NCBI GenBank assembly: GCA_042408195.1 | Contig: JBHOQL010000067.1 | Coordinates: 11,579 to 75,578, forward strand | Source of the DNA: Anaerolineae bacterium | GTDB lineage: Bacteria; Chloroflexota; Anaerolineae; SpSt-600 | Reading direction: 5' to 3' | Length of the DNA: 64,000 nucleotides | In this document: positions 20,506 to 38,298 of the stretch, piece after piece | How positions within the stretch are numbered: position 1 is the first letter of the stretch | How the letters are laid out: the number at the start of each line of letters is the position of its first letter | Translations under genes and position numbers: made by a program | Notes under the pieces: model-generated | What the model saw: the letters and a program-made list of their open reading frames with translations, nothing else | Database searches by the model: none | What the model was told of the DNA's origin: nothing

Positions 20506-20602
20506 GGCCCCATCCTGTTTTGGTCGTCGGGAAAATTATATTGTAACAACTTTACTGCAGCAAGTCCGGTTTCTTTAGTGCGTGGGGAATTCTCCCTTCG
20601 TG

Positions 20603-20633: not shown

Positions 20634-23600
20634 ATGGAAAGAGTGCTGCTCAGGGTAAAGCTACTGCCCCCGCGTCTAACTAAACGAGTGCTGGTCCGCC
20701 CGCGCCTGATTCAGCAGCTTCTCGAGGCTCTAAATTACCGTTTGACCATCCTACAAGCAGGGGCTGGTTACGGCAAGAGCACAGCTCTGGCAACTTTGGC
20801 CGAACAGGGGATACCTATCGTCTGGTATCAGCTGGAGCGGGAAGACAGCGACCCAGCCCTTTTTCTTTTCTACCTCATCCACGGCTTTCGCTCCCTATTT
20901 CCCGATGGTTTCGAGCTTGCTTTGGCTTTCATCGAGGAGCATTCCGATCAGTTCCGTCCAACCCTGGTTCTAGATATATTGCTGGACGAATTAGCCAAAC
21001 GGATCACCTCTCCCCACTTCTTCGTCCTGGATGATGCTCACTTCCTGAGAGAATCCCCGGAGACCTTGCGGCTTCTGGACCGCTTCATCGCCCATTCACC
21101 ACCGGATCTACATACAATCCTTTCCACCCGCTACGCTCTCAATCTGCCTACTCTGATCCGTTGGAAAGCCCACGGAGAGGTTTTGGAGATCCGGCAGGAA
21201 GATTTAGCTTTTACCCCTGAGGAAATAAAAGCCCTTTTCCTTCGGAAATATCGGCTATTCCTTAGCCCGTCTGAGATCGCTTTGCTGGCTGAGCGGACCG
21301 AAGGGTGGCCCATTGCTCTTCAACTTGTCTGGAAGGCTCTGCAGAGCCGTATCACTCCGAACCTCTCCCGGGCCCTTGAGCAGGTAACTGGCCCTACTGA
21401 AAGTCTCTTCCTTTACCTGGCCCGTGAAGTTCTGGAGCAGCTAGAGCCGAGAGTACGGGATTTCCTCCTGAAGACGGCGGTTTTGCAGGAGTTATCGCCC
21501 TCCATTTGCGATTGCCTCTGCGAAACTACCGATAGCGTTTCCATCATCAATTATCTCATGGAAAATGGCCTTTTCATTGTGGACCTCGGGGAAGGCCTTT
21601 TCCGTTACCATCACTTGTTCAGGGAGTTCCTCTACCATCAACTCTCGCCCCAGGAGGCCAGAGAGGCTCATTTGCGGGCTGCCAAGTGTTTTACGAAGAT
21701 GGGTGATGAAGCCAAAGCTGTTCACCATTTCCTGGCTGCGCAGGCCTGGGAAGAGGCTGCCGCAATAATTGATAACTTGGGCCGGGATATGGTGCAGGCA
21801 GGCAGGCTTGAGACTCTTTCCCAGTGGCTTGGTATGATTCCGCCAGAAGTGCTGGCAGCTCATCCAGCGTTGTTAATCTACCTTGGGGACATAGCCCGCC
21901 TTCGGAGCCGTTTCCATGAAGCCCTTGGCTGGTATCAGCAGGCTGAAGAACGCTACCGTCTTAGAGGCGATAATCGGGGGGTTGGCCAGGCTCTGAGGGG
22001 AAAGGCCCGTGTCTATCTGGACACTGTGGATCCGGTCCAGGCGGAGCGATACCTCCAGGAGGCCCTTCGCCTTGCCGATGGGCAGGAGGACAGGGAGAGC
22101 TTTGCTCGCTTGCTGGAGCTCCTGGCAGAAAACCAGCTCAATCTGGGTCGTCCCGAGGAAGCAGAGCGATTGCGTGCACAGGCCCGTACTCTCCGAGAAG
22201 AGGGGCCGGGAGAGGCCGAATTGGCTGTCCGTGTGCTCCTGCGCACCGGCCGGCTCAACGAAGCTCGTCGCCTCTTGGAAGAGCAGGCAGAGAGGGAGCG
22301 TCGGGAACCTGTGCTCAGGCCCCGGGCCCACCGGGAAACCTTGCTCATCCTCTCCCTTGTGCTGGCTTTCCAGGGGGAGGCCGAAGCAGCTTACTATTGC
22401 GCTGTAGATGGCACAAAGCGGGGGCAGCTCCTCAATTCCCCCTTCGTTACTGCAGTGGGTTACATGAGACAGGGGCATTCCTGGCTCATAAGAGACGACC
22501 CAGATGGATATTCTCAGGCATGTCGTTGCTATCAGGAAGCCATAGCCATAAGTGAGGACCTTGCCGTCCCGCGCTTAAAGGTGGAAGCCTTCTGGGGACT
22601 TTGTCGAGCTCATGGCTTCAATGGGGAGTTGGATGCTGCTCTAGAAGCGGCTCACAAGGGGATAGAAATTGCCCAGCGGGCTGGAGATGAATGGATAACC
22701 GCACTGATCAGGGTCTCCATGGGGGCAGGGTATGTCCTGGCCGGTGAGTACAACTTAGCTGTAGATTGGCTTTCCCGAGCTCTAAATTCCTTTAGGGAAT
22801 GCAGTGACCCATACGGGGAGGCTGTTGCCAGGTTATGGCTCTGTCTAACGTGGTGGCGTAAGAAAGACCAGGCCCGGTTGAGGCGGGATTCTGAGGAGCT
22901 TCTCAGTTTGGTTCACAGCCACGGCTACGATTACCTTTTCACCAGAAGGACGCTCTTGGGACCTCCTGATCCCCGCATGGCGGTCCCAATACTGCTTTAT
23001 GCCCGTGACTCTGGCCTTCATCCCGCATGTGTGGATCGTCTCCTCAAGTCCTTGGGACTGGAGAAGACGGAAGTCCACCCGGGTTACCAGCTTAGGGTAC
23101 AAACCCTTGGGCCGTTCAGGGTTTGGCGGGGAACAAAGGAAATTTCTCCATCGGAATGGCGCCGTGAGAAAGCTCGGAGGCTCTTTCAAGTCTTAATAAC
23201 TTACCGGCGCACTATGCTAGATCGGGACCAGATTCTGGAAATGCTCTGGCCCGACCTGGACCCCGAAACAGCCAAACGGGATTTCAAAGTAGCTCTCAGC
23301 ACCCTGTGCAAAGTCCTGGAGCCTGAGCGTCAGGAAGGGATGCCTTCGGCTTACATAATTCGGGATCGTTCCCGGTACGGACTCAGACCAGGGGCCGACA
23401 TTTGGCTGGATGTGGAAGAGATGGAAAAAGAGATAACCAGTGGGGACAAGCTCCTAAACTTAGAGCCCGATAAAGCCCTGGAGCACTATAAGCGTGCGCT
23501 TGTCCTTTACGGTGGGGACTACCTGGAAGATTGCCTTTACGAATCTTGGTGCAGCGAGGAAAGGGAGAGAATTCTGATCCTCTACCTTCGCACAGCTGAG

Positions 23601-23858
23601 AGAGTAGCAGAGCTTCTGGCCCGTAAGGAAGTATGGGATGAGGTTCTTAACGTTTGCCGGGCCATTTTAGCTCGGGATCCTTGCTGGGAGCAAGCTTACC
23701 GCTGGATGATGCTGGCCTATGCCCGCACTGGCCGTAGGGCTCAGGCCTTGAAAACCTATAGGAAATGCGTGGAGCGGCTCCGCAAAGAGCTCCAAGTAGA
23801 CCCCTCCCCTGCCACCGTTCAGCTATACGAAGAAATCCGCAACGCCCGCCTTCAGTAA
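20634..23858 (+). CDS. Large transcriptional regulator. It has an N-terminal STAND/MalT-like P-loop ATPase, central TPR-like helical repeats, and a C-terminal OmpR-type winged helix plus BTAD (SARP/DnrI/AfsR-family activator domain).
   Basis: 1074 aa. The P-loop is QAGAGYGKST. The C-terminus LRVQTLGPFRVWRGTKEISPSEWRREKARRLFQVLITYRR...DQILEMLWPD has the SARP DNA-binding signature, followed by a BTAD helical region (...AYARTGRRAQALKTYRKCVERLRKELQVDPSPAT). Confidence 0.8.
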   Translation: MERVLLRVKLLPPRLTKRVLVRPRLIQQLLEALNYRLTILQAGAGYGKSTALATLAEQGIPIVWYQLEREDSDPALFLFYLIHGFRSLFPDGFELALAFIEEHSDQFRPTLVLDILLDELAKRITSPHFFVLDDAHFLRESPETLRLLDRFIAHSPPDLHTILSTRYALNLPTLIRWKAHGEVLEIRQEDLAFTPEEIKALFLRKYRLFLSPSEIALLAERTEGWPIALQLVWKALQSRITPNLSRALEQVTGPTESLFLYLAREVLEQLEPRVRDFLLKTAVLQELSPSICDCLCETTDSVSIINYLMENGLFIVDLGEGLFRYHHLFREFLYHQLSPQEAREAHLRAAKCFTKMGDEAKAVHHFLAAQAWEEAAAIIDNLGRDMVQAGRLETLSQWLGMIPPEVLAAHPALLIYLGDIARLRSRFHEALGWYQQAEERYRLRGDNRGVGQALRGKARVYLDTVDPVQAERYLQEALRLADGQEDRESFARLLELLAENQLNLGRPEEAERLRAQARTLREEGPGEAELAVRVLLRTGRLNEARRLLEEQAERERREPVLRPRAHRETLLILSLVLAFQGEAEAAYYCAVDGTKRGQLLNSPFVTAVGYMRQGHSWLIRDDPDGYSQACRCYQEAIAISEDLAVPRLKVEAFWGLCRAHGFNGELDAALEAAHKGIEIAQRAGDEWITALIRVSMGAGYVLAGEYNLAVDWLSRALNSFRECSDPYGEAVARLWLCLTWWRKKDQARLRRDSEELLSLVHSHGYDYLFTRRTLLGPPDPRMAVPILLYARDSGLHPACVDRLLKSLGLEKTEVHPGYQLRVQTLGPFRVWRGTKEISPSEWRREKARRLFQVLITYRRTMLDRDQILEMLWPDLDPETAKRDFKVALSTLCKVLEPERQEGMPSAYIIRDRSRYGLRPGADIWLDVEEMEKEITSGDKLLNLEPDKALEHYKRALVLYGGDYLEDCLYESWCSEERERILILYLRTAERVAELLARKEVWDEVLNVCRAILARDPCWEQAYRWMMLAYARTGRRAQALKTYRKCVERLRKELQVDPSPATVQLYEEIRNARLQ

Positions 23859-23895
23859 CTACTTTGTAACTCTTTTGTAACCGTTTGGTTATAAA
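23855..23895 (+). promoter_or_regulatory. Candidate SARP-box promoter: three GTAAC-containing heptamers at 11-bp periodicity (23855, 23866, 23877), with the last repeat 8 bp upstream of a TATAAA -10 at 23890-23895
   Basis: Read from the sequence cAGTAACtacTTTGTAACtctTTTGTAACcgtttggtTATAAAat. The geometry (11-bp repeat phasing, 8-bp gap to the -10) is the established arrangement for SARP-activated promoters. A regulator with a SARP domain is encoded immediately upstream. Confidence 0.45.
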
Positions 23896-23929
23896 ATTTT
23901 TTCTGCTTACAAAGCAGAGGAGGTTAACC

Positions 23930-24694
23930 ATGCGGCTCAAGGACAGAGTCGCTCTCATCACAGGTGGAGCTGTGGGCATAGGCCAAGCTACAGCTTTCCG
24001 TTTCGCCGAAGAAGGTGCCATAGTTATAATCTGTGATGTGAACGAAGAAGCGGGCCGCCAGACTGCCGCTCAGCTTGGAGACGAAACCCGTTTCTACAAA
24101 GTAAACGTGGTTGACAGGAAAGCGGTCCAGGCCTGGGTGGACGATGTGGCTGCTCGCTTCGGCAGGATTGATATCCTCGTAAACAATGCCGGCATCCTGC
24201 GGGACGCCCTGCTGGTGAAGTACAAAGACGGCCAGGTAGTGGGTCAGATGTCTGAGGAAGATTTTGACCTGGTCATCGCTGTCAATCTCAAGGGAGTTTT
24301 CAACTGCACCCAGGCCGTCGTGCCCTACATGATACGGCAGGGCGGTGGAGTAATCCTCAATGCTTCCTCCGTTGTGGGAATAGATGGCAACTTCGGCCAG
24401 ACCAACTACGTGGCTTCAAAAGCTGGCGTCATCGGAATGACTAAAGTGTGGGCCAGGGAACTGGCAAGGTACAATATCCGGGTCAACGCTGTTGCCCCTG
24501 GTTTCATCCTAACCGATATGGTCCGCCAGATGCCGGAGAAAATCCTTGAGCAGATGAAAGCTCGCATCCCCTTGGGCCGCCTGGGGGATCCGAGAGATGT
24601 AGCCAACGCTTACCTCTTCCTGGCCTCTGATGAAGCCTCTTATATTACGGGAACCGTGCTTCGTGTAGATGGTGGCATCGTGGTGGGTACCTAA
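23930..24694 (+). CDS. Short-chain dehydrogenase/reductase, FabG-like 3-oxoacyl reductase
   Basis: The Rossmann motif is ITGGAVGIGQA. The catalytic motifs are NNAG and S...YVASK. I chose the internal ATG at 23930 with RBS GAGGAGG upstream. Confidence 0.85.
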   Translation: MRLKDRVALITGGAVGIGQATAFRFAEEGAIVIICDVNEEAGRQTAAQLGDETRFYKVNVVDRKAVQAWVDDVAARFGRIDILVNNAGILRDALLVKYKDGQVVGQMSEEDFDLVIAVNLKGVFNCTQAVVPYMIRQGGGVILNASSVVGIDGNFGQTNYVASKAGVIGMTKVWARELARYNIRVNAVAPGFILTDMVRQMPEKILEQMKARIPLGRLGDPRDVANAYLFLASDEASYITGTVLRVDGGIVVGT

Positions 24695-24705
24695 GGAGGC
24701 AGAGC

Positions 24706-26232
24706 ATGATCGTTGGAGATTGGCTTGGACGTCGGGAGCTTCTGACCCCAAACAAAGTGGCTCTTATAGACACCCTCAACGGCAACCGCCCCATAACTTA
24801 CAGGGAATGGAGCCACATGGTCAACCGAACGGCTCGCTTCCTCCAAGAACGTCTCGGAGTGCGTAAGGGAGATCGGGTGGCCATACTGGCTCAGAACTGT
24901 GTGGAATATTTGGACCTGTGGTTCGCTTTGGGCCGCATTGGCGGTGTCATGCAGGCCCTGAACTGGCGCCTAACCCCTTACGAACTGGAGGGTCTCCTCA
25001 ACGATGGCAGACCAGTAGCTTTGGTTTACGGAAGCGAGTTCACCTCCCAAGTCAACGCTCTGCGGGGCAAAATTCCTAACCTACATTATTATGTAGCCCT
25101 AGGAGAAAAAGCTTCTCCGAATGATATCTCCTTCTCTGAGCGCGAATCTTTTCCCGACCACTCCCTTCCGGAAATAGACCTGGATTGGGAGGACCCATGG
25201 GTCATCTGCTATACCGGTGGCACAACCGGCTTGCCGAAAGGAGCCATATTGACCCATCGCTCTATCACTGCTAACGCCGTCAACACAGTTATCTCTTGGG
25301 GTCTCACCCCCGATGATGTGGCTATTCTCAACGCCCCTCTTTTCCATACCGGAGGCCTTAATGTATTCACTGCCCCCTTGGTTTACATCGGAGGCACTAG
25401 TATCGTTTGTAAGGGGTTTGATCCGGACCAGGTCTTCGATCTCATTAGAGATGCAGGGGTGACAGTGTTTTTCGGCGTTCCGACTATGTTTATCATGCTT
25501 CAGCAGCATCCTCGCTGGGAAGAGGCTGATTTTTCCCGCCTGAAGATTGTGATAAGCGGCGGAGCGCCCTGCCCAATGTCTGTGTTTGAAAAGTTCTTTG
25601 AGAAAGGCATCAATTTCAAAACGGGCTATGGTCTCACTGAAGCGGGTCCCAATACCTTCTGGCTTCCTCCGGAAGATGCGCGTCGCAAGCCTGGCTCTGT
25701 CGGTTTCCCCTTGTTCCACATCGATGTGAAGATAGTGCGAGAAGATGGGACTGAGTGTGGTCCGGAGGAGGTTGGAGAACTCATTATCCGTGGGCCCCAT
25801 GTCTGCGCCGGCTACTGGAACAACCCCGAAGCCACAGCTCAAACTTTTCGAGATGGATGGCTTCACACCGGCGACCTGGCCAAACGCGATGCCGAAGGCT
25901 ACTATTACATCGTTGGGCGGATAAAGGATATGTTCATCTCGGGAGGGGAAAACGTTTATCCCGCTGAAATTGAGAGCGTCCTCCACTCCCATCCGGCCGT
26001 AGTTGAGGCAGCGGTCATAGGAGTGCCCGACCCAAAGTGGGGAGAAGTAGGCCGAGCCATTGTAGCCCTTCGCCCCGGCGCTTCCGTGACCGAGGAAGAA
26101 CTCATAGCATTCTGTCGAGAGCGATTGGCAAGTTACAAAATTCCCAAATCCTTCATTTTCGTGGAAGCTCTACCCAAAACAGGGGCAGGCAAAGTGGACA
26201 AAGAACGTCTGAGGAAGGAATACGGCTCGTAG
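24706..26232 (+). CDS. AMP-dependent synthetase/ligase (acyl- or aryl-CoA ligase), paralog 1
   Basis: 508 aa. The ANL P-loop is YTGGTTGLPKG. The hinge and A8 region is GDLAKRDAEGYYYIVGRIKDMFISGGENVYP. It carries a C-terminal lysine motif. Confidence 0.85.
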   Translation: MIVGDWLGRRELLTPNKVALIDTLNGNRPITYREWSHMVNRTARFLQERLGVRKGDRVAILAQNCVEYLDLWFALGRIGGVMQALNWRLTPYELEGLLNDGRPVALVYGSEFTSQVNALRGKIPNLHYYVALGEKASPNDISFSERESFPDHSLPEIDLDWEDPWVICYTGGTTGLPKGAILTHRSITANAVNTVISWGLTPDDVAILNAPLFHTGGLNVFTAPLVYIGGTSIVCKGFDPDQVFDLIRDAGVTVFFGVPTMFIMLQQHPRWEEADFSRLKIVISGGAPCPMSVFEKFFEKGINFKTGYGLTEAGPNTFWLPPEDARRKPGSVGFPLFHIDVKIVREDGTECGPEEVGELIIRGPHVCAGYWNNPEATAQTFRDGWLHTGDLAKRDAEGYYYIVGRIKDMFISGGENVYPAEIESVLHSHPAVVEAAVIGVPDPKWGEVGRAIVALRPGASVTEEELIAFCRERLASYKIPKSFIFVEALPKTGAGKVDKERLRKEYGS

Positions 26233-26256
26233 AAGAGTCAGGACGAGGAGGTCAAT

Positions 26257-27060
26257 ATGCCGAAAATGAAAGTGAATGATATAGAGATTGCTTATGAGGT
26301 GACCGGTTCCGGTCATCCGTTGGTTCTCATCACTGGCGTCGGATATGGACGCTGGTTCTGGCACAAAATCGTGCCTGAACTTTCCAAGCATTTTCAGGTG
26401 GTAACTTTTGATAACCGCGGAGCCGGTGAAAGCGATAAACCCCCCGGTCCTTACACCACAAAAATGATGGCGGCTGATACCGCCGGTCTCCTTGATGGCC
26501 TCGGTATCCGCAGAGCCTATGTAATGGGTCACTCTTTGGGTGGATTCATTGCGCAAGAGCTAACTCTTGCCAGACCTGACCTTGTTGAGAAATTGATTCT
26601 GGCTTCCACAACTTACGGTGGCCCCAACGTTATACCCATTACCCCAGAGGCCCTTGAAGTCCTCACTAAGAGGGATGGTGATCCTGTAGAACTGGTCCAC
26701 AGAGGAATCAAAGTGGCCTGTGCGCCAGGCTTCGCCGAGCGCCATCCGGAAGTGGTCAAAGAGCTTCTGGAGTACCGACTGACCAACCCTGTGCCTCCAG
26801 CTCAGTATCAAGCTCAGGTTATGGCCGGAGCTACCCACAACGCTGAGGACCGCATCTCTCAGATAACCTGTCCCGTGCTCGTGCTCTTTGGCGAGTACGA
26901 CAAGGTAGTCCCTCCCGGGAACGCGGAACTCTTGGCCCGGAAGCTCCCCAACGCTCGGGTCAAAATCCTCCCCAACGTGGGTCACATTTTCCCCATAGAA
27001 GACCCCCAAGCCACTGTGGAAGCGATGCTGGAATTTCTGAAGCCTGAGGAGGCTAAGTGA
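26257..27060 (+). CDS. Alpha/beta-hydrolase fold protein, paralog 1
   Basis: 267 aa. The nucleophile elbow is GHSLGG, with an HGxP-like oxyanion region and a C-terminal His (NVGHIFPIE). Confidence 0.8.
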   Translation: MPKMKVNDIEIAYEVTGSGHPLVLITGVGYGRWFWHKIVPELSKHFQVVTFDNRGAGESDKPPGPYTTKMMAADTAGLLDGLGIRRAYVMGHSLGGFIAQELTLARPDLVEKLILASTTYGGPNVIPITPEALEVLTKRDGDPVELVHRGIKVACAPGFAERHPEVVKELLEYRLTNPVPPAQYQAQVMAGATHNAEDRISQITCPVLVLFGEYDKVVPPGNAELLARKLPNARVKILPNVGHIFPIEDPQATVEAMLEFLKPEEAK

Positions 27061-28052
27061 TGCGTCACGCTCGCATTCTTGCCACTGGCAGTTATGTGCC
27101 CCCAAGGCTAATTACGAACGATGAGATAGACGAAATCCTTGGGGAGAAAACCAGCGATTGGCTCATAGAGAACGTAGGCATTCGACAGCGTCATTGGATG
27201 ACGCCCGAGCAGACCACTTCTGATTTGGTGGTGGAAGCCTCCAAGATAGCACTGGAACGAGCTGGCCTCCGGCCTGAAGACTTGGATCTCATCATCGTGT
27301 CTACCGACACTCCCGATTACCTTTCTCCTCCTACCTCGGCAGTAGTCCAGTACAAGCTGGGGGCAGTCAATGCTGGTTGCTGGGATGTGAACAGTGCCTG
27401 CGCAGGGTGGGTGACAGCCTTGGACCAGGGAGCCCGCTACATTATGACTGAGCCGACAATCCGATACGTCCTAGTGGCCGGTGGCTACGGTATGAGCCGC
27501 TTCCTGGACCTCAAGGACAAGAAAACCGCCAACCTCTTTGCCGATGGTGCGGGGGCGGTAGTGTTGGGTCCCAGTGAGGGACCCGGATTCTTGGCAAGCC
27601 AATTCCTGGCCAAAGGTGAATACTACGATGCTCTGGGCATCTACACCGGTGGCGCTTTTCGGCCCTGTACCCCGGAGAACCTGGAAAAATACGGTCCACC
27701 GCGAGTCCAATTCGTCAAGAAATTCCCCCGCACCTTCAACACGGAATACTGGCCTTGGCTGATTCAGAAAGCTCTGGAAAAGGCAGGGCTTACAGTAGAA
27801 GATGTGGATCTTTTCCTCTTCACACAGCTCAACTTGCGCACTATTGAACTGATGATGCAAATCCTCGGTCAATCTATGGAGAAAACCCATTGGGTCATGG
27901 ACAAGTGGGGCTATACAGGCTCACCCTGTGTGGCGATGGCACTGGATGATTTAATCAACCAGGGACGTGGGCCAAAACCAGGCGATATAATCGTCTTCTG
28001 CACCAGCGGCGGGGGCATAACGATGGCTGCCTCTGTCTGGCGGTGGGTATGA
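27057..28052 (+). CDS. FabH-like (KAS III / thiolase-fold) condensing-enzyme homolog with a non-canonical active site
   Basis: 331 aa. It aligns by eye along its length with E. coli FabH, and the Cys nucleophile is retained (VNSACAGW versus AAACAGF). At the positions of FabH His244 and Asn274 the residues appear to be Thr (FTQLNLR versus PHQANLR) and Tyr (KWGYTGSP versus RHGNTSAA). Confidence 0.75.
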   Translation: MMRHARILATGSYVPPRLITNDEIDEILGEKTSDWLIENVGIRQRHWMTPEQTTSDLVVEASKIALERAGLRPEDLDLIIVSTDTPDYLSPPTSAVVQYKLGAVNAGCWDVNSACAGWVTALDQGARYIMTEPTIRYVLVAGGYGMSRFLDLKDKKTANLFADGAGAVVLGPSEGPGFLASQFLAKGEYYDALGIYTGGAFRPCTPENLEKYGPPRVQFVKKFPRTFNTEYWPWLIQKALEKAGLTVEDVDLFLFTQLNLRTIELMMQILGQSMEKTHWVMDKWGYTGSPCVAMALDDLINQGRGPKPGDIIVFCTSGGGITMAASVWRWV

Positions 28053-28065
28053 GGAGGAGATCCAT

Positions 28066-29616
28066 ATGTATGTCGGCGATTACCTTGGCCGAAGAGCTAT
28101 CTACAGTCCTGAAAAGGTAGCCGTAGTAGATTACGGCAAGCAACCGCCTTGGCGCCTCACTTACCGCCAAATGAATGAGCGTGCTAATCGTTTCGCCAAC
28201 TGGTTGCGGAACGTAGCCGGAATTCGCAAGGGCGATCGAGTCGCCATTCTGGCTCGGGATGGGGTAGAGCATCTGGATTGCTTCTTTGCCTGCTCCAAAC
28301 TGGGAGCTATCCACACTGCCCTGAACTGGCGCCTCCACTGGCGGGAGCTTGTAGAGATAATCCGCAAAACTACCCCTACTGTCCTTATCTACTCCGACGA
28401 CTTCAAGGATAACGTTTTCCAACTCAGGGAGGCGATAAAAGGTACGGATTACGCTATTCTCTACTACCTCCACATAGAAGGCGAAGGTGTGGAGGGGAGC
28501 CTTCACTTTGAAACCATATTGCAGAGCAGCCCTTCAGACCCTGTCACTTGCGAAGAGGTGGAAGCCGAAGATATTGTGGCCCTTATTTTCACCGGAGGCA
28601 CCACTGGTTTCCCCAAGGCTGCCCAAGTTTCCCACCGGATGATAGCCTGGAACACTCTTAACACTGTCATCCATGACTTAACCCATAACGATGTTTACTT
28701 GAATGTATTTCCAATGTTCCACACCGGAGGCCTTTTCGTTTACACCCTTCCCCAAATAATCATGGGCGGCACCACGATCTTGATCCGTCAGTTTGACCCG
28801 GCTCTTGTGCTCCGGCTAATAGAGCAAGAAAAGGTCACAGTTTTTGCTGCCGTGCCCACCATGTATCAGATGATGACCCAAGCCCCCAACTGGGAGGAAG
28901 CTGATCTCTCTTCCCTCAGGTTCTGCACCAGCGGTGGAGCCCCTCTACCGGTCCCGCTTATAGAGAAATACACCCGTGAGAAAGGAGTACGTTTCAAGCA
29001 AGGCTTCGGTATGACAGAATTCGGGCCGGGCATTTTTGCCCTAGCTCCGGAGGATGCCGTCCGTAAGGCCGGTTCCATTGGTCGTCCCAACTTCTTCATA
29101 GACGCCCGCATCGTTGACGACGAGAACCGCCCTCTGGGTCCCAACCAGATAGGGGAGTTAGTGCTCAGAGGCCCTTCCATTTGCTCTGGCTACTTCGGTG
29201 ACCCTGAAGCCACAGCCGGGATGCTGGATGAAGAGGGTTGGTTCCACACTGGCGACTTAGCCTACTACGATGAGGAGTGGTATTTCTACATTGTGGACCG
29301 TAAAAAGGATATGTTCATCTCTGGAGGGGAAAATGTCTACCCCGTGGAGATAGAGAAAGCCCTTTACGAGCACCCTGCCGTGCACATGTGCGCCGTCATC
29401 GGTGTGCCGGATCCCAAATGGGGGGAGGTCGGACTAGCCTGCGTTGTCCTGAAGCCTGGGATGACGGCTACCGAGGAAGAGCTCATAGCTTTTCTGAAAG
29501 AGCGCTTGGCCAGCTACAAAGTCCCTAAGCGTGTAGTCTTCATGGAGAGCTTGCCCATTTCTGCGGCAGGCAAAATCCTGAAGAGAGAACTGCGCAAGCA
29601 GTTCGTGGGAGGATAA
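28066..29616 (+). CDS. AMP-dependent synthetase/ligase, paralog 2
   Basis: 516 aa. The P-loop is FTGGTTGFPKA. DLAYYDEEWYFYIVDRKKDMFISGGENVYP is shared with the other two paralogs. Confidence 0.85.
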   Translation: MYVGDYLGRRAIYSPEKVAVVDYGKQPPWRLTYRQMNERANRFANWLRNVAGIRKGDRVAILARDGVEHLDCFFACSKLGAIHTALNWRLHWRELVEIIRKTTPTVLIYSDDFKDNVFQLREAIKGTDYAILYYLHIEGEGVEGSLHFETILQSSPSDPVTCEEVEAEDIVALIFTGGTTGFPKAAQVSHRMIAWNTLNTVIHDLTHNDVYLNVFPMFHTGGLFVYTLPQIIMGGTTILIRQFDPALVLRLIEQEKVTVFAAVPTMYQMMTQAPNWEEADLSSLRFCTSGGAPLPVPLIEKYTREKGVRFKQGFGMTEFGPGIFALAPEDAVRKAGSIGRPNFFIDARIVDDENRPLGPNQIGELVLRGPSICSGYFGDPEATAGMLDEEGWFHTGDLAYYDEEWYFYIVDRKKDMFISGGENVYPVEIEKALYEHPAVHMCAVIGVPDPKWGEVGLACVVLKPGMTATEEELIAFLKERLASYKVPKRVVFMESLPISAAGKILKRELRKQFVGG

Positions 29617-29627
29617 GGGGGTGCATT

Positions 29628-30689
29628 ATGGCTGAAATCTACCACCTTGAAGGAATTACTTCCAGGATGATTCAGACTCCGCGGCTCAGAATGCATGTGC
29701 TTACCGCTGGGCTGGAGGAAGGCATTCCGGTTGTGTTCATCCACGGCAATGGCTCGTCCTCCACCTTCTGGGAGGAAACAATGCTGGCTCTACCGCCCGC
29801 TTTCCGAGGCATAGCTCCTGATATGAGGGGTTATGGCGAGACAGAGCCGTTGCCAATAGATGCCACGCTGGGCCTGAGCGACATGGTGGAGGACCTTCGC
29901 TCTCTGGTGGAAACAATTGGCCTGAAGAAATTCCACCTCGTCGGCCATTCCATGGGTGGCGGTATTGCGATGAAATATGCCATCGCTTATCCTGACGATC
30001 TTCTCTCCATAACGCTGGTGGATACAATGTCTCCATATGGCTACAGCGGAAGCAAAGATTTGAATGGAACGCCTTGCTACGAGGATGGTGCTCCCGCAGG
30101 GGCGGGGAGCGTCAACCCCGAATTCATCCGTCTCCTCAGGGAAAAGGATAGAGGAACCGATAACCCAATGTCTCCCCGCAACGTGCTGCGCCACTTCTAC
30201 TTCAAGCCTCCGTTCGTCCCCAAGCGAGAAGAAGACCTTCTCACGGCCATGCTTTCCATGCAAGTGGGCGAAGATTGGTACCCTGGCGATTTTGTTCCCT
30301 CCCCCAATTGGCCCGGAGTCGCCCCTGGAAAGCGCGGCGTAATAAATGCTATCAGCCGAAAGTATTTTGATGCCAGCGGCATTGTTGACATTCAGCCCAA
30401 ACCGCCAATCCTCTGGATCCGCGGGGCTGATGATCTGGTGGTTTCCAACAGCGCCATGTGGGATGTTGCAACTTTAGGGGCTTTGGGATTCGTCCCGGGA
30501 TGGCCTGGCCCCGAGCATTGTCCTCCCCAGCCAATGCTGGACCAGATACGTGCTGTGTTGGAGCGATACAAGGCCAACGGTGGCTATTACCGGGAGGAAG
30601 TCATCCCTGATTGTGGCCACACTCCGTTCATAGAGAAACCCGAAGAGTTTAACGCCCTCTTTCACGAGTTCCTGCTGAAGGGAGGATAG
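29628..30689 (+). CDS. Alpha/beta-hydrolase fold protein, paralog 2 (larger, 353 aa, with an extended cap)
   Basis: The HGNGSS oxyanion region and the nucleophile elbow GHSMGG are present. A C-terminal His sits in CGHTPF. Confidence 0.75.
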   Translation: MAEIYHLEGITSRMIQTPRLRMHVLTAGLEEGIPVVFIHGNGSSSTFWEETMLALPPAFRGIAPDMRGYGETEPLPIDATLGLSDMVEDLRSLVETIGLKKFHLVGHSMGGGIAMKYAIAYPDDLLSITLVDTMSPYGYSGSKDLNGTPCYEDGAPAGAGSVNPEFIRLLREKDRGTDNPMSPRNVLRHFYFKPPFVPKREEDLLTAMLSMQVGEDWYPGDFVPSPNWPGVAPGKRGVINAISRKYFDASGIVDIQPKPPILWIRGADDLVVSNSAMWDVATLGALGFVPGWPGPEHCPPQPMLDQIRAVLERYKANGGYYREEVIPDCGHTPFIEKPEEFNALFHEFLLKGG

Positions 30690-30692
30690 CAT

Positions 30693-32216
30693 ATGTACAC
30701 CTTTGACTGGTTAGCCAAAAGGGCGGAGCTCTCGCCCAACAAGATTGCCCTCATAGATGTCGCTACAGGGCGCGAGTGGACCTATGCCCAATTTAACGAG
30801 CGCGCTAGCCGCTTTGCCGAATTCCTCAGGGACGAGTGGAAAATAAAAGAAGGCGAACGGGTGGCTATCTTAGCCTACAACTCCTCCGATTACTTTGAAG
30901 TCCTCTACGGCTGTGCCAAGGTGGGGGTGATATTGGTCTGCCTCAACTGGCGGCTGGCCCTCCCGGAACTAGAGGTGATAGTCAACGATGCTTCACCCCG
31001 CGCCCTCATTTACGATCCCGATTTCACCGAGGCTGCCCATTACCTCAAGGAGCGCACTACGGCTACCCTTCTTATGACTCTGGGAGAAAAAGCTCCTAAA
31101 GGTGAATGGGCGTACGAGAAAGCCCTCGCCGAGGCAAGTGGTCAGCCCATCGTCATGCCTCCGCGAGCTTTGAGCGATGTCTGGCATCTCCTTTACACTG
31201 CCGGCACCACAGGGCGCCCAAAAGGCGTAATCCAGACCTTCGGGATGGTCTTCTACAATGCCGTAAACATTGGAATTGCCATCGATCTGACCTCAGAGGA
31301 CGTGACCCTGAACGTCCTCCCCACTTTCCACACCGGTGGCCTTAACCTCTACGCAAACCCGACTTTCCACGTAGGTGGCACTGCTATAATCCAAAAGTCC
31401 TTTGACCCTGGAGAGACCCTGCGCCTTCTCTCCGAAAAGGCCACAGCCTTTTTCGGAGTGCCTGCAATGTATCTGTTTATGAGCCAACACCCGGATTTTG
31501 ACAAATACGACCTTTCTCGAGTCCGCTCCTGGGCCTGTGGCGGTGCTCCGATGCCTGTTCACCTCCTTCGCTGGTATGCCGAGCGGGGCATTATCATCCA
31601 ACAGGGCTTCGGCATGACCGAGACTGGTCCCACTGTCTTCCTAATTGACAAAGAGCACGCGATCTCCAAAGCGGGCTCCGTGGGCAAGCCCCAGATGCAT
31701 GTGGCGGTGCGCATCGTGGACCGGGAAGGACGAGATGTTCCACCCGGAGAAGTCGGAGAGCTGTGGATAAAGGGGCCCGGTGTTACCCCAGGCTACTGGC
31801 AGCAGCCGGAAATAACTGCTGAGTCCTTCACTGATGGATGGCTTCACTCCGGTGACCTGGCCAGAGTGGACGAGGATGGATACTACTACATTGTGGACCG
31901 CCTGAAGGACATGTACATCTCTGGCGGGGAAAACGTTTACCCAGCTGAGGTTGAGAATGTCCTCTACCAAATGGAACAGATAGCGGAAGTGGCGGTTATA
32001 GGCGTGCCGGATCCCAAATGGGGCGAGGTGGGTAAAGCCATCGTGGTTGTGAAGCCCGGCTACACCCTGACTGAGGAGGAAGTGATTCGCTTCTGCGAGG
32101 GAAAGATCGCTCGCTACAAAATCCCGAAACATGTGGTCTTCGTGGACAGGCTCCCTCGCAATCCTGCTGGCAAAGTTCTTAAGACGGAACTTCGTAAGAG
32201 GTTTGGTGGGGCATGA
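30693..32216 (+). CDS. AMP-dependent synthetase/ligase, paralog 3
   Basis: 507 aa. The P-loop is YTAGTTGRPKG, with GDLARVDEDGYYYIVDRLKDMYISGGENVYP. Confidence 0.85.
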   Translation: MYTFDWLAKRAELSPNKIALIDVATGREWTYAQFNERASRFAEFLRDEWKIKEGERVAILAYNSSDYFEVLYGCAKVGVILVCLNWRLALPELEVIVNDASPRALIYDPDFTEAAHYLKERTTATLLMTLGEKAPKGEWAYEKALAEASGQPIVMPPRALSDVWHLLYTAGTTGRPKGVIQTFGMVFYNAVNIGIAIDLTSEDVTLNVLPTFHTGGLNLYANPTFHVGGTAIIQKSFDPGETLRLLSEKATAFFGVPAMYLFMSQHPDFDKYDLSRVRSWACGGAPMPVHLLRWYAERGIIIQQGFGMTETGPTVFLIDKEHAISKAGSVGKPQMHVAVRIVDREGRDVPPGEVGELWIKGPGVTPGYWQQPEITAESFTDGWLHSGDLARVDEDGYYYIVDRLKDMYISGGENVYPAEVENVLYQMEQIAEVAVIGVPDPKWGEVGKAIVVVKPGYTLTEEEVIRFCEGKIARYKIPKHVVFVDRLPRNPAGKVLKTELRKRFGGA

Positions 32217-33088
32217 AATTGGAAATAGGCCAGAAGGCTTCCTTCAAACGCCGGCTTACTCAGGAGGATTTCACCCGTTTCGCCCTTTTGAGCGGGGATA
32301 ATAATCCTATTCACACCGACCCGGAATTCTCTGCTCGGACCCGGTTCGGAAGACCAGTGGCTCATGGAGCCTTTCTCTTCGGGCTCATCTCTTCAGCCAC
32401 GAACAACCTCTTGCCAGGCCCTGGTTTACTTCTATATCAGGAACTCATGTTCCCAACCCCCTCCTATGCCGGAGAGGAAATAACGGTGCAGGTGGAAATC
32501 ACTGCTGTAAACCGCGAAAAGAACCAAGCTGAACTTTCAACTCTCATCATTCGGCCTAATGGAGAGCTCGGATGCCAGGGCCTGGCCCTCGTCCACTTCG
32601 GACTAGCGAATGGGTGGCCTCAAGTGGACAGGGAAATCCCGCCGCCATTGCCCAGCGAGGGCTCCATTCTTAAAGGATTCCGGCTGGGGGAGAGCGCTTA
32701 TCTCCAGAGAACTTTTACACTCGAAGATGTGCGGACGTACATTGAACTAACCGGTGATGCCAACCCCGTCTACACCGATGCTGAACTGGCCTCTGAGTTG
32801 GGATTGGACTCCCCCGTGCTTCCGCCGCCCCTTGTGGGGGCGCTATTCTCCTGCCTTCTCGGTGTACATCTGCCAGGCTGGGGCACGAATTACCTTAAGC
32901 AGCGCTTTATCTTCCTGGAGCCTGCTCACCCAGGCGAAGAACTCACAGCCAGGGTGGAGATCGTGCGCTTGCGTCCAGAGAAAGAACTCATAAACCTCCG
33001 CACCATCTGCCAGAAAACAGACGGAAAAACCATCGCCGATGGCGAAGCACTGGTGCTGGTGCGGGATGTAAAGGCAAGGGAAACCTAA
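32213..33088 (+). CDS. MaoC-like double-hotdog (R)-specific enoyl-CoA hydratase/dehydratase
   Basis: The N-terminal hotdog has the catalytic signature GDNNPIHTD...RPVAHG. The second hotdog has a degenerate GDANPVYTD (His replaced by Tyr), as in structural-cap hotdogs. Confidence 0.75.
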   Translation: MKLEIGQKASFKRRLTQEDFTRFALLSGDNNPIHTDPEFSARTRFGRPVAHGAFLFGLISSATNNLLPGPGLLLYQELMFPTPSYAGEEITVQVEITAVNREKNQAELSTLIIRPNGELGCQGLALVHFGLANGWPQVDREIPPPLPSEGSILKGFRLGESAYLQRTFTLEDVRTYIELTGDANPVYTDAELASELGLDSPVLPPPLVGALFSCLLGVHLPGWGTNYLKQRFIFLEPAHPGEELTARVEIVRLRPEKELINLRTICQKTDGKTIADGEALVLVRDVKARET

Positions 33089-33897
33089 TGCCGAAGGTAG
33101 AGGTTAACGGCATCCAACTTTACTATGAACTGCACGGCCCGAAAGAGGCCGAAGTCTTGGTGCTCTCCAATGGAATCATCATGAGCACTGCCGGATGGGT
33201 CTTCCAGACCCGCGAGCTGTCCAAGCATTACCGGCTGCTGCTCTACGATTGCCGGGGAATGTGGCAATCGGACCATCCTCCAGGCCCTTACTCCATGGAG
33301 CAGCATGCCGATGACCTGGCTGGCCTGCTGGATGCCCTCGGAATCGAGAAAGCCCATATCGGTGGCATCTCCTATGGGGGTGAAATAAGCATGACTTTCG
33401 CCCTCCGCTATCCGGAGCGAACTCTGAGCCTGATTGTGGCCGATTCCGTTAGCTACGTGGATCAATGGCTGCGAACCATAGTGGAAGGCTGGATCGCAAT
33501 AGCCCGCGCTAAGGATCCCAAAGCCTTCTTCTGCGCCACCGTTCCCTGGAACTTTTCCCCCCGCTTCATCCAGGAACACCCCGACCTTATGGCCCAAGCC
33601 CTTGAACGCTATGCCCTGCTGGACTACGATGCTTTCATAAGGCTTTGCGAATGCTTCCTCCGCCTGGACCTAACTGAAAAGCTAAAGGATATAACTGCTC
33701 CCACGTGCGTGATGGTTGGCGAGCATGATCTCCTTAAGGGAAGAAGGTATGCAGAGGAGATCGCTCGCCGGATTCCCGGGGCTGAACTTTACATAATACC
33801 AGGTGCTGGGCATGCTACCTGCTGGGAAAACTTTGAAGTTTTCAACGCCATCGTCCTCGGTTTCCTTGCCCGGCACCGCCAAACTAAACAAAACTGA
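33088..33897 (+). CDS. Alpha/beta-hydrolase fold protein, paralog 3
   Basis: 269 aa. The nucleophile elbow is GISYGG and a C-terminal His sits in GAGHATCWE. It is clearly paralogous to the 26257-27060 product (shared N-terminal MPKxxVNxIx and PGPY motifs). Confidence 0.8.
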   Translation: MPKVEVNGIQLYYELHGPKEAEVLVLSNGIIMSTAGWVFQTRELSKHYRLLLYDCRGMWQSDHPPGPYSMEQHADDLAGLLDALGIEKAHIGGISYGGEISMTFALRYPERTLSLIVADSVSYVDQWLRTIVEGWIAIARAKDPKAFFCATVPWNFSPRFIQEHPDLMAQALERYALLDYDAFIRLCECFLRLDLTEKLKDITAPTCVMVGEHDLLKGRRYAEEIARRIPGAELYIIPGAGHATCWENFEVFNAIVLGFLARHRQTKQN

Positions 33898-33908
33898 GGA
33901 GGAGTACC

Positions 33909-35255
33909 ATGCGTAACAAAAACTTGGTGGGGCTTGCTGTAGCTCTCATCGCAGGGCTGTCGCTGGTGCTGGCCTCGTGCAAGCCGGCTCCAACTCCTAC
34001 GCCTACTCCTGTCCCGCCAACCCCGACTCCTACACCTGCGCCTGCCCCCAGCCCCACGCCGACAGCTCCCCAGTATCCGTTCGCCGGGAAGCCCCTGAAG
34101 ATAGGTCTCCTGACCGATAACTCTGGGCCGCTGGCCATTTACGGGCCAATGTTGGAGAGGGGCTTTGAGCTCGGCCTGGAATACGCCACCAACGGCACAA
34201 TGGAAGTAGCCGGAAGGCCCATCAAAGTGATCATCAAAGATACTTCCAGCGACCCCGAGAAAGGCGTCAGTCAAGCACGTGAGCTTATTGAGGCCGAAGG
34301 GGTAGAAATACTGGTAGGGCCTCCCAGTTCTGGCGTCGCCATGGCCGTTCAGAAGATCGCTGAAGAATACAAAGTTATCTTAATTGTCGAACCGGCCGCC
34401 GCTACCGACATAACCGGCAAGAACTTCAACCCTTACACCTTCCGCACCAGCCGGACTTCTTACCAGGATGCTATTGTAATGGGCCAAGGCTTGCTGCAAT
34501 TGGGCAAAACCTTCGTCCAAATCGCTCCGGACTACGCTTTTGGCTGGGCTTCGGCCTGCGGCTTCTATGCTGTGATAAAGGCTGGCGGGGGTACTTTCCC
34601 CGTCAACGATACACCTCAGGGCTGCGGTGCCATCTTCATCCCCTTTGACACAACTGACTTCACCCCTTACCTCCAGCAGGTTCTGGACTCCGGGGCGGAA
34701 GTGCTCATCATAACTTGGGCTGGCGCGGGCTTCGTACCTCTCTTTAAGCAAATGCAGGAGCTGGGTGTCTTTGACAAAATGGTCGTCGGGACTGGCATCG
34801 GCGACAACCAGACCCTGGCGGCAGGCTACGCCAATGCCGTCGGCTCCACTGGAATTATTGTCTACCATTACACCCTCCCCAAGAACCCCGTCAATGACTG
34901 GTTGGTCAAGCGCCACAAGGAGAAATACGGGACTCCGCCAGACCTCTTCACCGCCGGTGGTATGGCTGCTGCCATCATGGTTGTGGAAGGGCTGAAGCGC
35001 ACGAACGGCGATGCCAGTGCAGATGCGCTCATCAAGGTCTACGAGGATAACTTCTCTTTTGATGGTCCCAACGGCAAATACATAATCCGGCCGTACGACC
35101 ACGTCTGTCTCTACCCGCTCTACTATGTCCGCTTGACCAACGTCACCGACCCCGAGTTCAGGTTCGTGGAACTGATCAAGGAGTTCGCTCCTGAAGAGGC
35201 AGCGCCGCCGTGCCTGCTGCCGGACCAGTACAAGGATCGCTGCCCCAAGGAGTAA
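33909..35255 (+). CDS. ABC transporter substrate-binding lipoprotein, LivJ/branched-chain-amino-acid-binding family (periplasmic-binding-protein type I)
   Basis: 448 aa. It has a lipoprotein signal (LVLASC) followed by a Pro/Thr-rich linker (PTPTPTPVPPTPTPTPAPAPSPTPT), then a Leu/Ile/Val-BP-like fold. Confidence 0.75.
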   Translation: MRNKNLVGLAVALIAGLSLVLASCKPAPTPTPTPVPPTPTPTPAPAPSPTPTAPQYPFAGKPLKIGLLTDNSGPLAIYGPMLERGFELGLEYATNGTMEVAGRPIKVIIKDTSSDPEKGVSQARELIEAEGVEILVGPPSSGVAMAVQKIAEEYKVILIVEPAAATDITGKNFNPYTFRTSRTSYQDAIVMGQGLLQLGKTFVQIAPDYAFGWASACGFYAVIKAGGGTFPVNDTPQGCGAIFIPFDTTDFTPYLQQVLDSGAEVLIITWAGAGFVPLFKQMQELGVFDKMVVGTGIGDNQTLAAGYANAVGSTGIIVYHYTLPKNPVNDWLVKRHKEKYGTPPDLFTAGGMAAAIMVVEGLKRTNGDASADALIKVYEDNFSFDGPNGKYIIRPYDHVCLYPLYYVRLTNVTDPEFRFVELIKEFAPEEAAPPCLLPDQYKDRCPKE

Positions 35256-35315
35256 CCCAGCGAAACCCGCGGGGGAGGAGGGGACTCCTCCCCCGCCACC
35301 TTCGGAGGACCGCAT

Positions 35316-36789: not shown

Positions 36790-36800
36790 GAGGGATTATA

Positions 36801-38294: not shown

Positions 38295-38298
38295 TGCC

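Follow-up and report, generated by a model that had tools for sequence, protein, structure and literature searches.

To our knowledge, work on SARP-type activation has been confined almost entirely to actinomycetes; there it serves antibiotic clusters, and the SARP module invariably stands at the N-terminus. The repeat consensus of the small SARPs is TCGAG-like, not GTAAC. MalT is an activator that assembles on repeated sites in an ATP- and ligand-dependent manner.

The targets of SARPs carry direct repeats at a spacing of 11 or 22 bp, and 8 bp separate the 3' repeat from the -10 element (PMC10936776). An earlier sequence-only reading of the locus described here had relied on this rule (11-bp repeats, 8 bp to the -10), which is indeed stated in the AfsR structural paper (PMC10936776). 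In the structure of AfsR with RNA polymerase, two neighbouring protomers cover 11-bp repeats from -40 to -19, and sigma region 4 rests upon the protomers (PMC10936776). SARP domains have been described at the N-terminus only (PMC10972967, PMC10936776). AfsR of S. coelicolor is a 'large' SARP, which combines wHTH-BTAD with NOD and TPR parts, and its operator is the afs box in the afsS promoter.

In this study, we analyzed a locus within a 64-kb window (the whole stretch of Anaerolineae DNA under analysis), in which a regulator gene is followed by three GTAAC repeats and an operon. Sequence and comparative evidence make it probable that these repeats are the operator of an activator-dependent operon promoter, with the adjacent 1074-aa protein as its activator.

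Domain architecture of the regulator

The regulator gene (20634..23858, + strand) encodes a MalT-like STAND NTPase of 1074 aa, as judged from Pfam and the translation. The protein consists of a P-loop NTPase, a MalT winged-helix domain, TPR repeats and then a C-terminal wHTH plus BTAD of SARP type. Its translation contains a Walker A motif (GAGYGKST, residues 43-50) and a Walker B motif (FFVLDD). Pfam matches of the regulator comprise BTAD, TPR_MalT (33 bits) and a weak AAA_22, and PF25873 (WHD_MalT) and PF17874 are also recorded for the protein. No GerE/LuxR domain was found by Pfam at its C-terminus.

The BTAD (residues 925-1069; 23406..23840, +) matches Pfam PF03704 over the full length of the model (1-146 of 146) with an E-value of 4.6e-28. 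It directly follows an OmpR-type winged helix-turn-helix (residues ~818-919; 23085..23390, +), which was delimited by alignment with AfsR, AF2 and Foldseek; on the regulator, Trans_reg_C reaches 22.2 bits, under the Pfam gathering cut-off of 26.2. By phmmer, regulator residues ~818-1070 align with AfsR residues 23-264, covering both domains, with an E-value of 1.5e-11. In the AlphaFold model (pLDDT 81), the secondary structure of the wHTH runs E-E-H-H-H-E-E, that is, a beta-hairpin, three helices and a wing, and is followed by an all-helical domain. The top six PDB matches in Foldseek (E-value 4e-9) are AfsR (8k60/8hvr) and EmbR (2ff4). The claim that the upstream regulator ends in an OmpR-type wHTH and then a BTAD was therefore confirmed by the Pfam BTAD match, the phmmer alignment with AfsR and the AlphaFold/Foldseek results.

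The predicted recognition helix in the wHTH of the regulator reads ...AKRDFKVALSTLCKVL..., and the wHTH segment is conserved across the regulator family. The base-contacting residues T88 and R92 of AfsR align to V and T, i.e. they are not conserved. Covariation between the recognition helix and the box was considered and set aside as uninformative, because both the helix, (R/Q)(D/N)FK..., and the GTAAC core are too conserved. Homologs of the regulator, of about 1074 aa and at least 55% identity, form more than 100 clusters in Anaerolineae/Chloroflexota.

The regulator gene has a promoter of its own with an extended -10 (TGgTATAAT, 20603-20611). A single TTGTAAC lies upstream of the gene at 20541; autoregulation through this site was rejected, as it lacks a phased partner and shows no conservation in the related loci L001 and L003-L005.

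GTAAC repeats and promoter signals

Direct reading of the + strand gives three GTAAC pentamers: repeat 1 at 23855..23859, repeat 2 at 23866..23870 (within ttGTAACt) and the promoter-proximal repeat 3 at 23877..23881 (within ttGTAACc). With 11 bp from start to start, they all lie on one face of the helix. Repeat 1 includes the TAA stop codon of the regulator gene (23856-23858). The sequence-only reading had reported three heptamers with this spacing; the spacing stands, but the start positions it assigned are those of the G of GTAAC, and the 8-mers as first written (cAGTAACt etc.) start 2 nt earlier, at 23853, 23864 and 23875.

With up to one mismatch, the pattern GTAACN6GTAACN6GTAAC matches once in the 64 kb on both strands, and in none of 100 dinucleotide-preserving shuffles. 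The two-repeat pattern, again with up to one mismatch, gives three matches in the window (1.06 expected), two of which are the 23855-23881 site; the sole other one, at 51726 and with one mismatch, is at chance level. TTGTAAC by itself is unremarkable in the window, with 8 occurrences against 4 expected. The search for the pattern elsewhere, which had been suggested as a way to define a regulon, yielded no further sites within the 64-kb window.

An anchored alignment of 15 sites places the -10 region at 23890..23897 (+). TATAAA at 23890-23895 follows the last GTAAC after 8 bp (23882-23889, cgtttggt), and TAAAAT at 23892-97 follows the last pentamer after 10 bp, a pentamer-to-TAnnnT distance shared by 12 of the 14 remaining aligned sites. 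The -10 position is ambiguous by 1-3 bp (TTATAA, TATAAA or TAAAAT), and the alignment of orthologs favours TAAAAT over TATAAA. The 8 bp between the last repeat and TATAAA is thus present in the window as claimed, but TATAAA is the less favoured -10. Since the ortholog-aligned -10 is TAAAAT, whether the distance is exactly 8 bp is a matter of how the start of the heptamer is defined; with a heptamer GTAACnn, the 10 bp counted from the pentamer become 8 bp.

There is no -35 hexamer 16-18 bp from the -10, and a scan of 23600-24100 for sigma-70 (-35/-10) promoters calls none, as expected if the promoter is activator-dependent. The scan of 23600-24100 also detects no intrinsic terminator, and hence none after the regulator gene, so that read-through could also feed the operon. 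A ribosome-binding site (GGAGG, 23919..23923, +) was read directly 6 nt before the ATG. No Rfam family matches 23700-24100 at E-values up to 1. A leader hairpin at 23902-23918 with potential pairing to the RBS was rejected, being neither significant (z-score -1.6) nor conserved.

The downstream operon

The first operon gene (23930..24694, +) encodes a FabG-like short-chain dehydrogenase/reductase of 254 aa (Pfam adh_short_C2, E-value 2e-71; NCBIfam FabG NF004198, 297 bits against a cut-off of 296). The remainder of a putative 14-gene operon extends over 24706..39399 (+) with gaps of at most 61 bp, according to the ORF list, Pfam and NCBIfam. It encodes three FadD-like acyl-CoA ligases, three alpha/beta hydrolases, a KASIII and a double hot-dog MaoC hydratase, as well as a Liv-type ABC transporter with a binding protein, two ATPases and two permeases. 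The first gene of what was earlier labelled the 'ligase/hydrolase operon' is thus a FabG-like SDR and not a ligase. No specific pathway could be assigned from NCBIfam, which yields the generic names FabG, FadD, PcaD-like hydrolase and FabH only.

Conservation across related loci

Related loci were picked by protein homology (47-85% identity) from Anaerolineae/Chloroflexota MAGs. The operon is syntenic with the regulator in L001, L003-L006 and L015, and its first gene is 88-98% identical across the syntenic loci. When the window and 18 protein-homology loci (253 kb, both strands) were scanned for sites with at least 14 of 15 pentamer positions matching, the only site recovered was the intergenic one between regulator and operon, which was present in the window and in six of the loci. 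Two repeats followed by TAnnnT were matched 21 times in 299 kb, compared with 0.2 times in shuffles; seven of these matches are circular because their loci had been retrieved by the DNA pattern. The other 14 belong to protein-selected loci or the window (14 sites in 13 related loci).

The consensus in the relatives is two to three G[T/C][A/T]AC pentamers in 11-bp phasing, 9-10 bp before TAnnnT. The 11-bp phasing is kept in 15 sites, and TAnnnT stands at the fixed 9-10 bp past the last repeat in 14 of 15 aligned sites; the 8-bp distance is seen in the window only, and only with TATAAA taken as the -10. All orthologs have spacers rich in pyrimidines on the + strand; across the orthologs these spacers change from T-rich to C-rich while the pentamer is conserved. 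This conservation across uncultured Chloroflexota indicates that the GTAAC repeats are a real promoter element.

Repeat 1 is found at the equivalent position in L001, L003 and L006, and its counterpart is non-coding in L004, L005 and L015, where the box lies 50-70 bp beyond the regulator stop codon. In L017, where the operon runs divergently, the box is kept together with the -10 and accompanies the target promoter upstream of the regulator. The box is thus not fixed by coding sequence, since it is displaced in L004, L005 and L015 and occupies a divergent promoter in L017. Because regulator and operon are syntenic, part of the association of the box with the regulator is confounded with its association with the operon. 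Paralogous regulators (L007b, L008b, L023 and L091) are flanked by GTAAC boxes before different genes, so that the box goes with the regulator family and not with a single operon. No box was found downstream of the regulator in L002 (82% identity), whose contig begins at the regulator gene, so that a divergent operon could not be seen there.

In other lineages, an ORF of ~70 aa follows the box. It has been lost in the lineage of the window, where it is encoded nowhere, and it has no Pfam or PDB match.

Proposed mechanism and alternative explanations

Most likely, the large ATP-dependent activator encoded by the neighbouring gene docks on these repeats. According to the mechanism that we propose, the operator would serve the promoter of the operon starting at 23930, with the repeats spanning roughly -49 to -21 and standing in for the -35 element. 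The TPR/sensor part would presumably keep the regulator off until ligand and ATP are bound. Each repeat could then be occupied by one C-terminal wHTH/BTAD module, so that the modules form a row that attracts the sigma-A RNA polymerase holoenzyme in the manner of AfsR on the afs box; transcription would start at about 23903-23905. We infer that the 1074-aa regulator is the binding protein, that its binding activates rather than represses, and that its stoichiometry and ATP/ligand switch are as outlined above. Direct activation of the operon by the adjacent regulator had been predicted before, and the comparative evidence supports that prediction through the wHTH/BTAD module, the geometry rule and phylogenetic footprinting taken together. 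The geometry of the array also accords with the structure of AfsR on RNA polymerase.

The three GTAAC repeats with their -10 also match many Pho-box promoters of unrelated bacteria. PhoB-type sites commonly take the form of GTAAC repeats phased at 11 bp and located about 10 bp before a -10, and GTAACN6GTAACN6GTAACN10TANNNT matches many metagenome promoters directly before pstS, Na/Pi cotransporter and porin genes. A SARP-like module is encoded near only 6 of 120 metagenome matches to the pattern, and DNA geometry alone therefore does not identify the binding protein. What had been called textbook SARP-box geometry is present, but it is not exclusive to SARPs, and geometry alone is not diagnostic because the Pho boxes of PhoB-type regulators share it. 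The array could consequently be a Pho-box-type site for a PhoB/PhoP/OmpR-family response regulator encoded elsewhere in the genome, with the STAND regulator binding elsewhere or sharing the site, like AfsR and PhoP in Streptomyces, which are reported to bind overlapping sequences (PMC10936776). We consider this unlikely, given that pstS is absent from the window and the 18 related loci, that PhoB is represented there by one weak receiver-domain match (L013), and that the window contains no OmpR/PhoB-type response regulator gene. Moreover, the operon content as annotated by Pfam and NCBIfam has no evident link to phosphate, and every box found in Chloroflexota sequence neighbours a STAND-SARP gene or a target of one, also in the case of paralogs whose target genes are unrelated.

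It is also conceivable, though quite improbable, that the regulator binds the repeats as a repressor, a roadblock or an autoregulatory element at its own 3' end, in which case the operon would be transcribed mainly by read-through from the regulator promoter at 20603-20611. The good TGgTATAAT promoter of the regulator, the lack of a terminator behind its gene and the overlap of repeat 1 with the stop codon are compatible with such an arrangement. However, TAnnnT is retained 9-10 bp past the final repeat at 14 of the 15 sites, which points to a promoter located here, and the box lies apart from the stop codon in L004, L005 and L015. In L017, both box and -10 are kept although the operon is divergent from the regulator, which makes read-through impossible there. 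In addition, all BTADs characterised so far serve in activation (PMC10936776, PMC10972967). It seems very improbable that the repeats arose by chance or have a purely structural basis, with no protein binding them specifically, for example as phased pyrimidine tracts that curve the DNA or as a remnant of the deletion that removed the small ORF. The pyrimidine-rich + strand spacers of all orthologs and the loss, in the lineage of the window, of the ~70-aa ORF that follows the box elsewhere would agree with this idea, but the absence of the three-repeat pattern from all 100 shuffles, the excess of two-repeat matches (21 against 0.2 expected) and the constancy of the pentamer while the spacers shift from T-rich to C-rich among orthologs speak against it.

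Discussion

Activation by the adjacent STAND regulator, if correct, makes this locus a sequence-level, conservation-supported case of SARP-type DNA-reading logic outside actinomycetes. In this case, the output end of a MalT-like ATP switch carries the SARP module, which putatively controls a conserved operon for lipid/acyl-CoA uptake and metabolism, and cultured members of the phylum are few. A literature search for SARP-family regulators in Chloroflexi found no papers, and a broader BTAD/STAND search returned irrelevant matches only. The locus offers a concrete candidate operator (two to three GTAAC at 11 bp, plus a -10) together with a candidate for its cognate protein, and the operator pattern may serve as a rule for locating targets of the regulator family in Chloroflexota metagenomes. 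It also calls for caution in annotating 'SARP-box geometry' as opposed to Pho-box geometry: as the two are indistinguishable in DNA, assignment of a site to a protein needs linkage evidence.

More speculatively, Chloroflexota may possess widespread 'inverted' large SARPs, i.e. MalT-like STAND ATPases with a C-terminal wHTH-BTAD, that read Pho-box-like GTAAC repeats at adjacent activator-dependent promoters. Their ancestral first target would have been the conserved ~70-aa protein, followed by the fatty-acyl-CoA operon; in the lineage of the window, the small gene would have been lost and the operator fused onto the stop codon of the regulator. This wider scenario is possible but doubtful at present. 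A ~70-aa gene as first target would formally parallel afsR->afsS.

Among known systems, AfsR matches the C-terminal 250 aa of the regulator best, in sequence as well as in fold. Both proteins fuse a STAND-type ATPase and TPR to an OmpR-type wHTH plus BTAD, both operators consist of 11-bp direct repeats that overlap and replace the -35 at a fixed short distance from the -10, and the target gene, in our locus a proposed one, lies in both cases directly downstream of the regulator gene. Unlike AfsR, the regulator has a reversed domain order, with ATPase and TPR N-terminal and the SARP module C-terminal (residues ~818-1070 of 1074), its NTPase belongs to the MalT class (WHD_MalT, TPR_MalT), and V and T replace T88 and R92. 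The operator has three repeats with a GTAAC core, whereas the afs box has two, and the host belongs to Anaerolineae, with a fatty-acyl metabolism/transport operon as proposed target and not an antibiotic regulator.

Small SARPs such as ActII-ORF4 and DnrI share the wHTH plus BTAD and the three 11-bp direct repeats overlapping the -35 region (PMC10972967), an arrangement that the GTAAC array reproduces. They differ in being proteins of about 300 aa that consist of the SARP module alone and act as pathway-specific activators of antibiotic clusters in actinomycetes; the present regulator has neither an actinomycete origin nor a secondary-metabolite cluster. Its C-terminal module, Anaerolineae MAG host and proposed fatty-acyl operon target mean that it is not a canonical SARP.

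Like MalT/LAL STAND regulators, the protein has an N-terminal P-loop NOD, a MalT winged-helix domain, a TPR-like sensor and a C-terminal DNA-binding output. The output of MalT/LAL proteins is a LuxR-type HTH, in contrast to the wHTH plus BTAD found here, and MalT boxes have another sequence and arrangement than the GTAAC array. The Pho boxes of PhoB/PhoP resemble the array at the DNA level, with 7+4 bp direct repeats of 11-bp periodicity that replace the -35 about 10 bp before the -10 and are bound head-to-tail by an OmpR-type wHTH, and the identical pattern of three GTAAC precedes pstS and Na/Pi transporter genes in other phyla. However, Pho boxes are bound by a two-component response regulator, whereas the locus described here has neither a regulator of PhoB type nor phosphate-related genes, and its array is accompanied by a STAND protein with a SARP-type output.

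GTAAC repeats upstream of the operon

Direct reading of the region 23500-24300 gives the stretch ...cttcaGTAACtactttGTAACtcttttGTAACcgtttggttataaaatttttt..., in which three GTAAC pentamers on the plus strand start at 23855, 23866 and 23877, exactly 11 bp apart from start to start, with the TAA stop codon of the regulator gene (20634-23858, +) lying inside the first repeat. A TATAAA hexamer follows at 23890-23895 (+), 8 bp past the last pentamer, and a GGAGG ribosome-binding site stands ahead of the ATG of the first downstream gene at 23930 (+). The triple pattern occurs only once in the 64-kb window, even when one mismatch is allowed, and in none of 100 dinucleotide-preserving shuffles. Given this uniqueness and the exact phasing, the sequence-only reading was right about the three phased repeats, and the arrangement is genuine, well past anything that chance would produce. 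The coordinates it quoted are those of the GTAAC cores, but not of the 8-mers as it wrote them. No other convincing match to a two-repeat pattern was found within the window. The leader also contains a hairpin (TCTGCTT-aca-AAGCAGA, 23902-23918) whose T-run could pair with the ribosome-binding site, and within which the repeat core recurs in inverted form (TTACAAA, 23907-23913; TTTGTAA on the minus strand); this hairpin is not significant (z -1.6), nor is it conserved in the orthologs.

The 14 tightly spaced genes of the operon (23930-39399, +) encode a FabG-like short-chain dehydrogenase/reductase (SDR), three FadD-like acyl-CoA ligases, three alpha/beta hydrolases, a FabH-like KASIII, a double hot-dog MaoC hydratase and a Liv-type ABC importer. 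This content suggests that some organic acid or lipid is taken up, activated with CoA and then processed by beta-oxidation-like or condensation chemistry. The operon is not recognisable as an antibiotic cluster.

Conservation of the box and promoter character

We used the sequence past the stop codon of each regulator ortholog as a phylogenetic footprint. In the related Chloroflexota loci L001, L003 and L006 (78-85% identity), three GTAAC at 11 bp are retained and begin in the stop codon. Three repeats, one of them GCAAC, are also retained in L004, L005 and L015 (71-77%), where they lie 50-70 bp past a different stop codon, so that their conservation is not due to coding constraint. Two repeats are retained in the distant loci L007-L010, L012, L016 and L017 (47-60%). 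A pentamer scan requiring at least 14/15 in the window and 18 related loci (253 kb, both strands) returned only these orthologous sites. When 15 sites were aligned with the last repeat as anchor, the consensus was (y)(t/g)GTAAC(t/c) with a pyrimidine-rich spacer and an 11-bp period, followed by a TAnnnT hexamer. Among the 14 other sites, this hexamer begins 10 bp past the last pentamer in 12 and 9 bp past it in two; several sites (L001, L003, L009, L017) carry a TGn extension. Moreover, a two-repeat-plus-hexamer scan of 299 kb of Chloroflexota sequence produced 21 matches versus 0.2 in shuffles, 14 of them in sequences chosen independently of the DNA pattern.

At the aligned distance of 10 bp, the window has TAAAAT (23892-23897). 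The TATAAA previously proposed as the -10 does lie 8 bp past the last pentamer, but the ortholog alignment picks TAAAAT, two bases further downstream. If the heptamer is written GTAACnn, with the conserved bases 5' by analogy with SARPs, the distance to the -10 is 8 bp, the published figure; written nnGTAAC, it is 10 bp. Because the spacing depends on this convention, it would agree with the published rule only within the uncertainty of definitions. No -35-like hexamer was found 16-18 bp upstream of any candidate -10, a sigma-70 scan called no promoter, and there is no terminator 3' of the regulator gene. The pattern looks like an activator-dependent promoter with the activator occupying the -35 region. 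The regulator gene's own promoter has what looks like an extended -10 (TGgTATAAT, 20603-20611), common to the L001 and L003 orthologs, and no GTAAC box, the lone TTGTAAC at 20541 not being conserved; there is therefore no sign of autoregulation.

The regulator carries a SARP-type module

The 1074-aa regulator has a P-loop NTPase (Walker A GAGYGKST, Walker B FFVLDD), a MalT-type winged-helix domain (PF25873) and MalT-like TPR repeats. BTAD is full-length at residues 925-1069 (E 4.6e-28), and the Trans_reg_C match just N-terminal of it is weak (22.2 bits, under the 26.2 cut-off). By phmmer, residues ~818-1070 align with AfsR 23-264, which comprises the OmpR-type DNA-binding and BTA domains (E 1.5e-11), with EmbR next. 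We modelled the C-terminal 274 residues with AlphaFold2 from 40 homologs (mean pLDDT 81), and the model has the expected order of beta-hairpin, three helices, wing hairpin and seven helices. Its top six Foldseek matches in the PDB (E 4e-9 to 5e-7, over some 250 aligned columns) are EmbR and the transcription-initiation complexes of AfsR. Therefore, despite the sub-threshold Trans_reg_C match, the upstream regulator does possess the OmpR-type wHTH and BTAD first ascribed to it, as a genuine C-terminal SARP-type module that follows a MalT-like STAND ATPase. Throughout the family, the segment of the predicted recognition helix, (R/Q)(D/N)FKVALS.L, hardly varies, which fits the conserved GTAAC core. 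Homologs form more than 100 clusters of near-equal length and at least 55% identity; all annotated ones are from Anaerolineae/Chloroflexota MAGs, and the 18 loci pulled with protein patterns belong to that phylum too. Some homologs are automatically labelled 'MalT/SARP family', and our literature search turned up no publication about regulators of this kind in Chloroflexi.

Linkage of box, operon and regulator family

The tblastn gene order is regulator, FabG-like SDR, acyl-CoA ligase, alpha/beta hydrolase, KASIII and ligase, and the regulator-to-ligase order is kept in L001, L003-L006 and L015. In these loci the operon enzymes are 85-98% identical to those of the window (23930-29616) versus 71-85% for the regulators, and thus constraint is stronger on the target genes than on the regulator. 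In L017, operon and regulator gene are divergent, and the box (two repeats plus TGgTATAAT) precedes the operon, upstream of the regulator gene. Judging from this arrangement, the box is part of the target promoter, not of the regulator gene's 3' end.

GTAAC boxes also trail the second regulator paralog of L007 and of L008 and more distant paralogs on metagenome contigs L023 and L091, where they stand before different genes: a roughly 70-aa ORF, a gene for a 105-aa coiled-coil protein (FFEKNMDMWERW...) and one for a lysine-rich helix-hairpin-helix (HhH) protein. On contig L131, the gene behind a box is that of an acetyl-CoA hydrolase/transferase, and a STAND-SARP gene lies ~6.7 kb away. Such boxes beside paralogs with other targets tie the box to the regulator family apart from any particular operon. 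Several regulators sharing one core motif suggests a multi-member family and raises the question of cross-talk. Boxes near STAND-SARP paralogs lie at L023 1656(-), L132 86, L010 4504, L091 1938, L131 1226 and L007 3604, and their targets include a biotin carboxylase gene; contig L132 begins at the box and shows no regulator gene. Around the regulator ortholog of L011, REP/MITE-like repeats (GGAACGCTGATAACGCTGAT..., CCCGTGAAAACGGGGG hairpins) fill the intergenic regions (4215-4485 and 5520-6010), where no GTAAC box was seen.

In most related loci, the first gene after the box promoter is a conserved roughly 70-aa ORF (MPGTTIASFILRFIRE...WRGIVRHIQTG.QYGFTRLEDAMAFIA) with no Pfam or PDB match (L004 9385-9621; L005 7559-7777; L007 ~6560-6790; L008 9377-9595 and 4162-3992(-); L009 8185-8394; L010 4265-4474; L012 2370-2585; L015 1101-1322; L016 9293-9529; L017 5850-5692(-)). 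It is missing from the window as well as from L001, L003 and L006, the closest relatives of the window, and there the box abuts the SDR gene. In L015 (1323-1563) and L012 (2586-2877), long non-coding gaps (240-290 bp) lie between the small ORF and the SDR gene.

Candidate binding proteins

The geometry had been called textbook SARP. We scanned metagenomes with GTAACN6GTAACN6GTAACN10TANNNT, and a SARP-like module was encoded in only 6 of the 120 returned loci, the others being mostly unrelated and some of them simple tandem repeats. One group that stands out consists of sites immediately before pstS, Na/Pi cotransporter or porin genes, with -7 boxes in the style of Bacteroidota (TAnnTTTG); these look like Pho boxes (L080 9782, L081 6088, L092 7197(-), L054 2138(-), L056 184, L034 4952, L021 1469(-), L088 2340, L124 6420(-), L037 2287(-)). 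On these unrelated contigs, three GTAAC at 11 bp are followed by TAnnnT, in many cases TAnnTTTG. Thus, the 11-bp repeat geometry is a general format for tandem binding of OmpR-type winged helices and is not SARP-specific.

A PhoB-type response regulator binding the box is a legitimate rival given this shared geometry, but the box in Chloroflexota sequence is linked exclusively to STAND-SARP genes. Moreover, neither pstS nor a gene for a PhoB-type regulator is present in the window, nothing in the operon relates to phosphate, and among the 18 related loci only one weak PhoB receiver-domain match (L013) was obtained. In Streptomyces, the sites of AfsR and PhoP are on record as overlapping (PMC10936776), so the two readings are not necessarily alternatives. 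Direct activation of the operon by the adjacent wHTH-BTAD regulator, as originally predicted, is the best-supported explanation and, on comparative evidence, a likely one.

Comparison with described SARPs

The AfsR complex has a pair of SARP protomers next to each other on 11-bp repeats (-40 to -19), with sigma region 4 placed atop them (PMC10936776). Every described 'large SARP' has the reverse module order to this regulator, whose SARP module is C-terminal (PMC10972967; PMC10936776). The regulator would work like a large SARP but departs from the family in two defining features, since its module is not N-terminal and its context is not actinomycete secondary metabolism; the most fitting description is a STAND regulator of the MalT-like kind whose output domain is SARP-type. 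By analogy only, the succession of a large STAND-SARP gene, a box and a small-protein gene resembles the arrangement of afsR and afsS.
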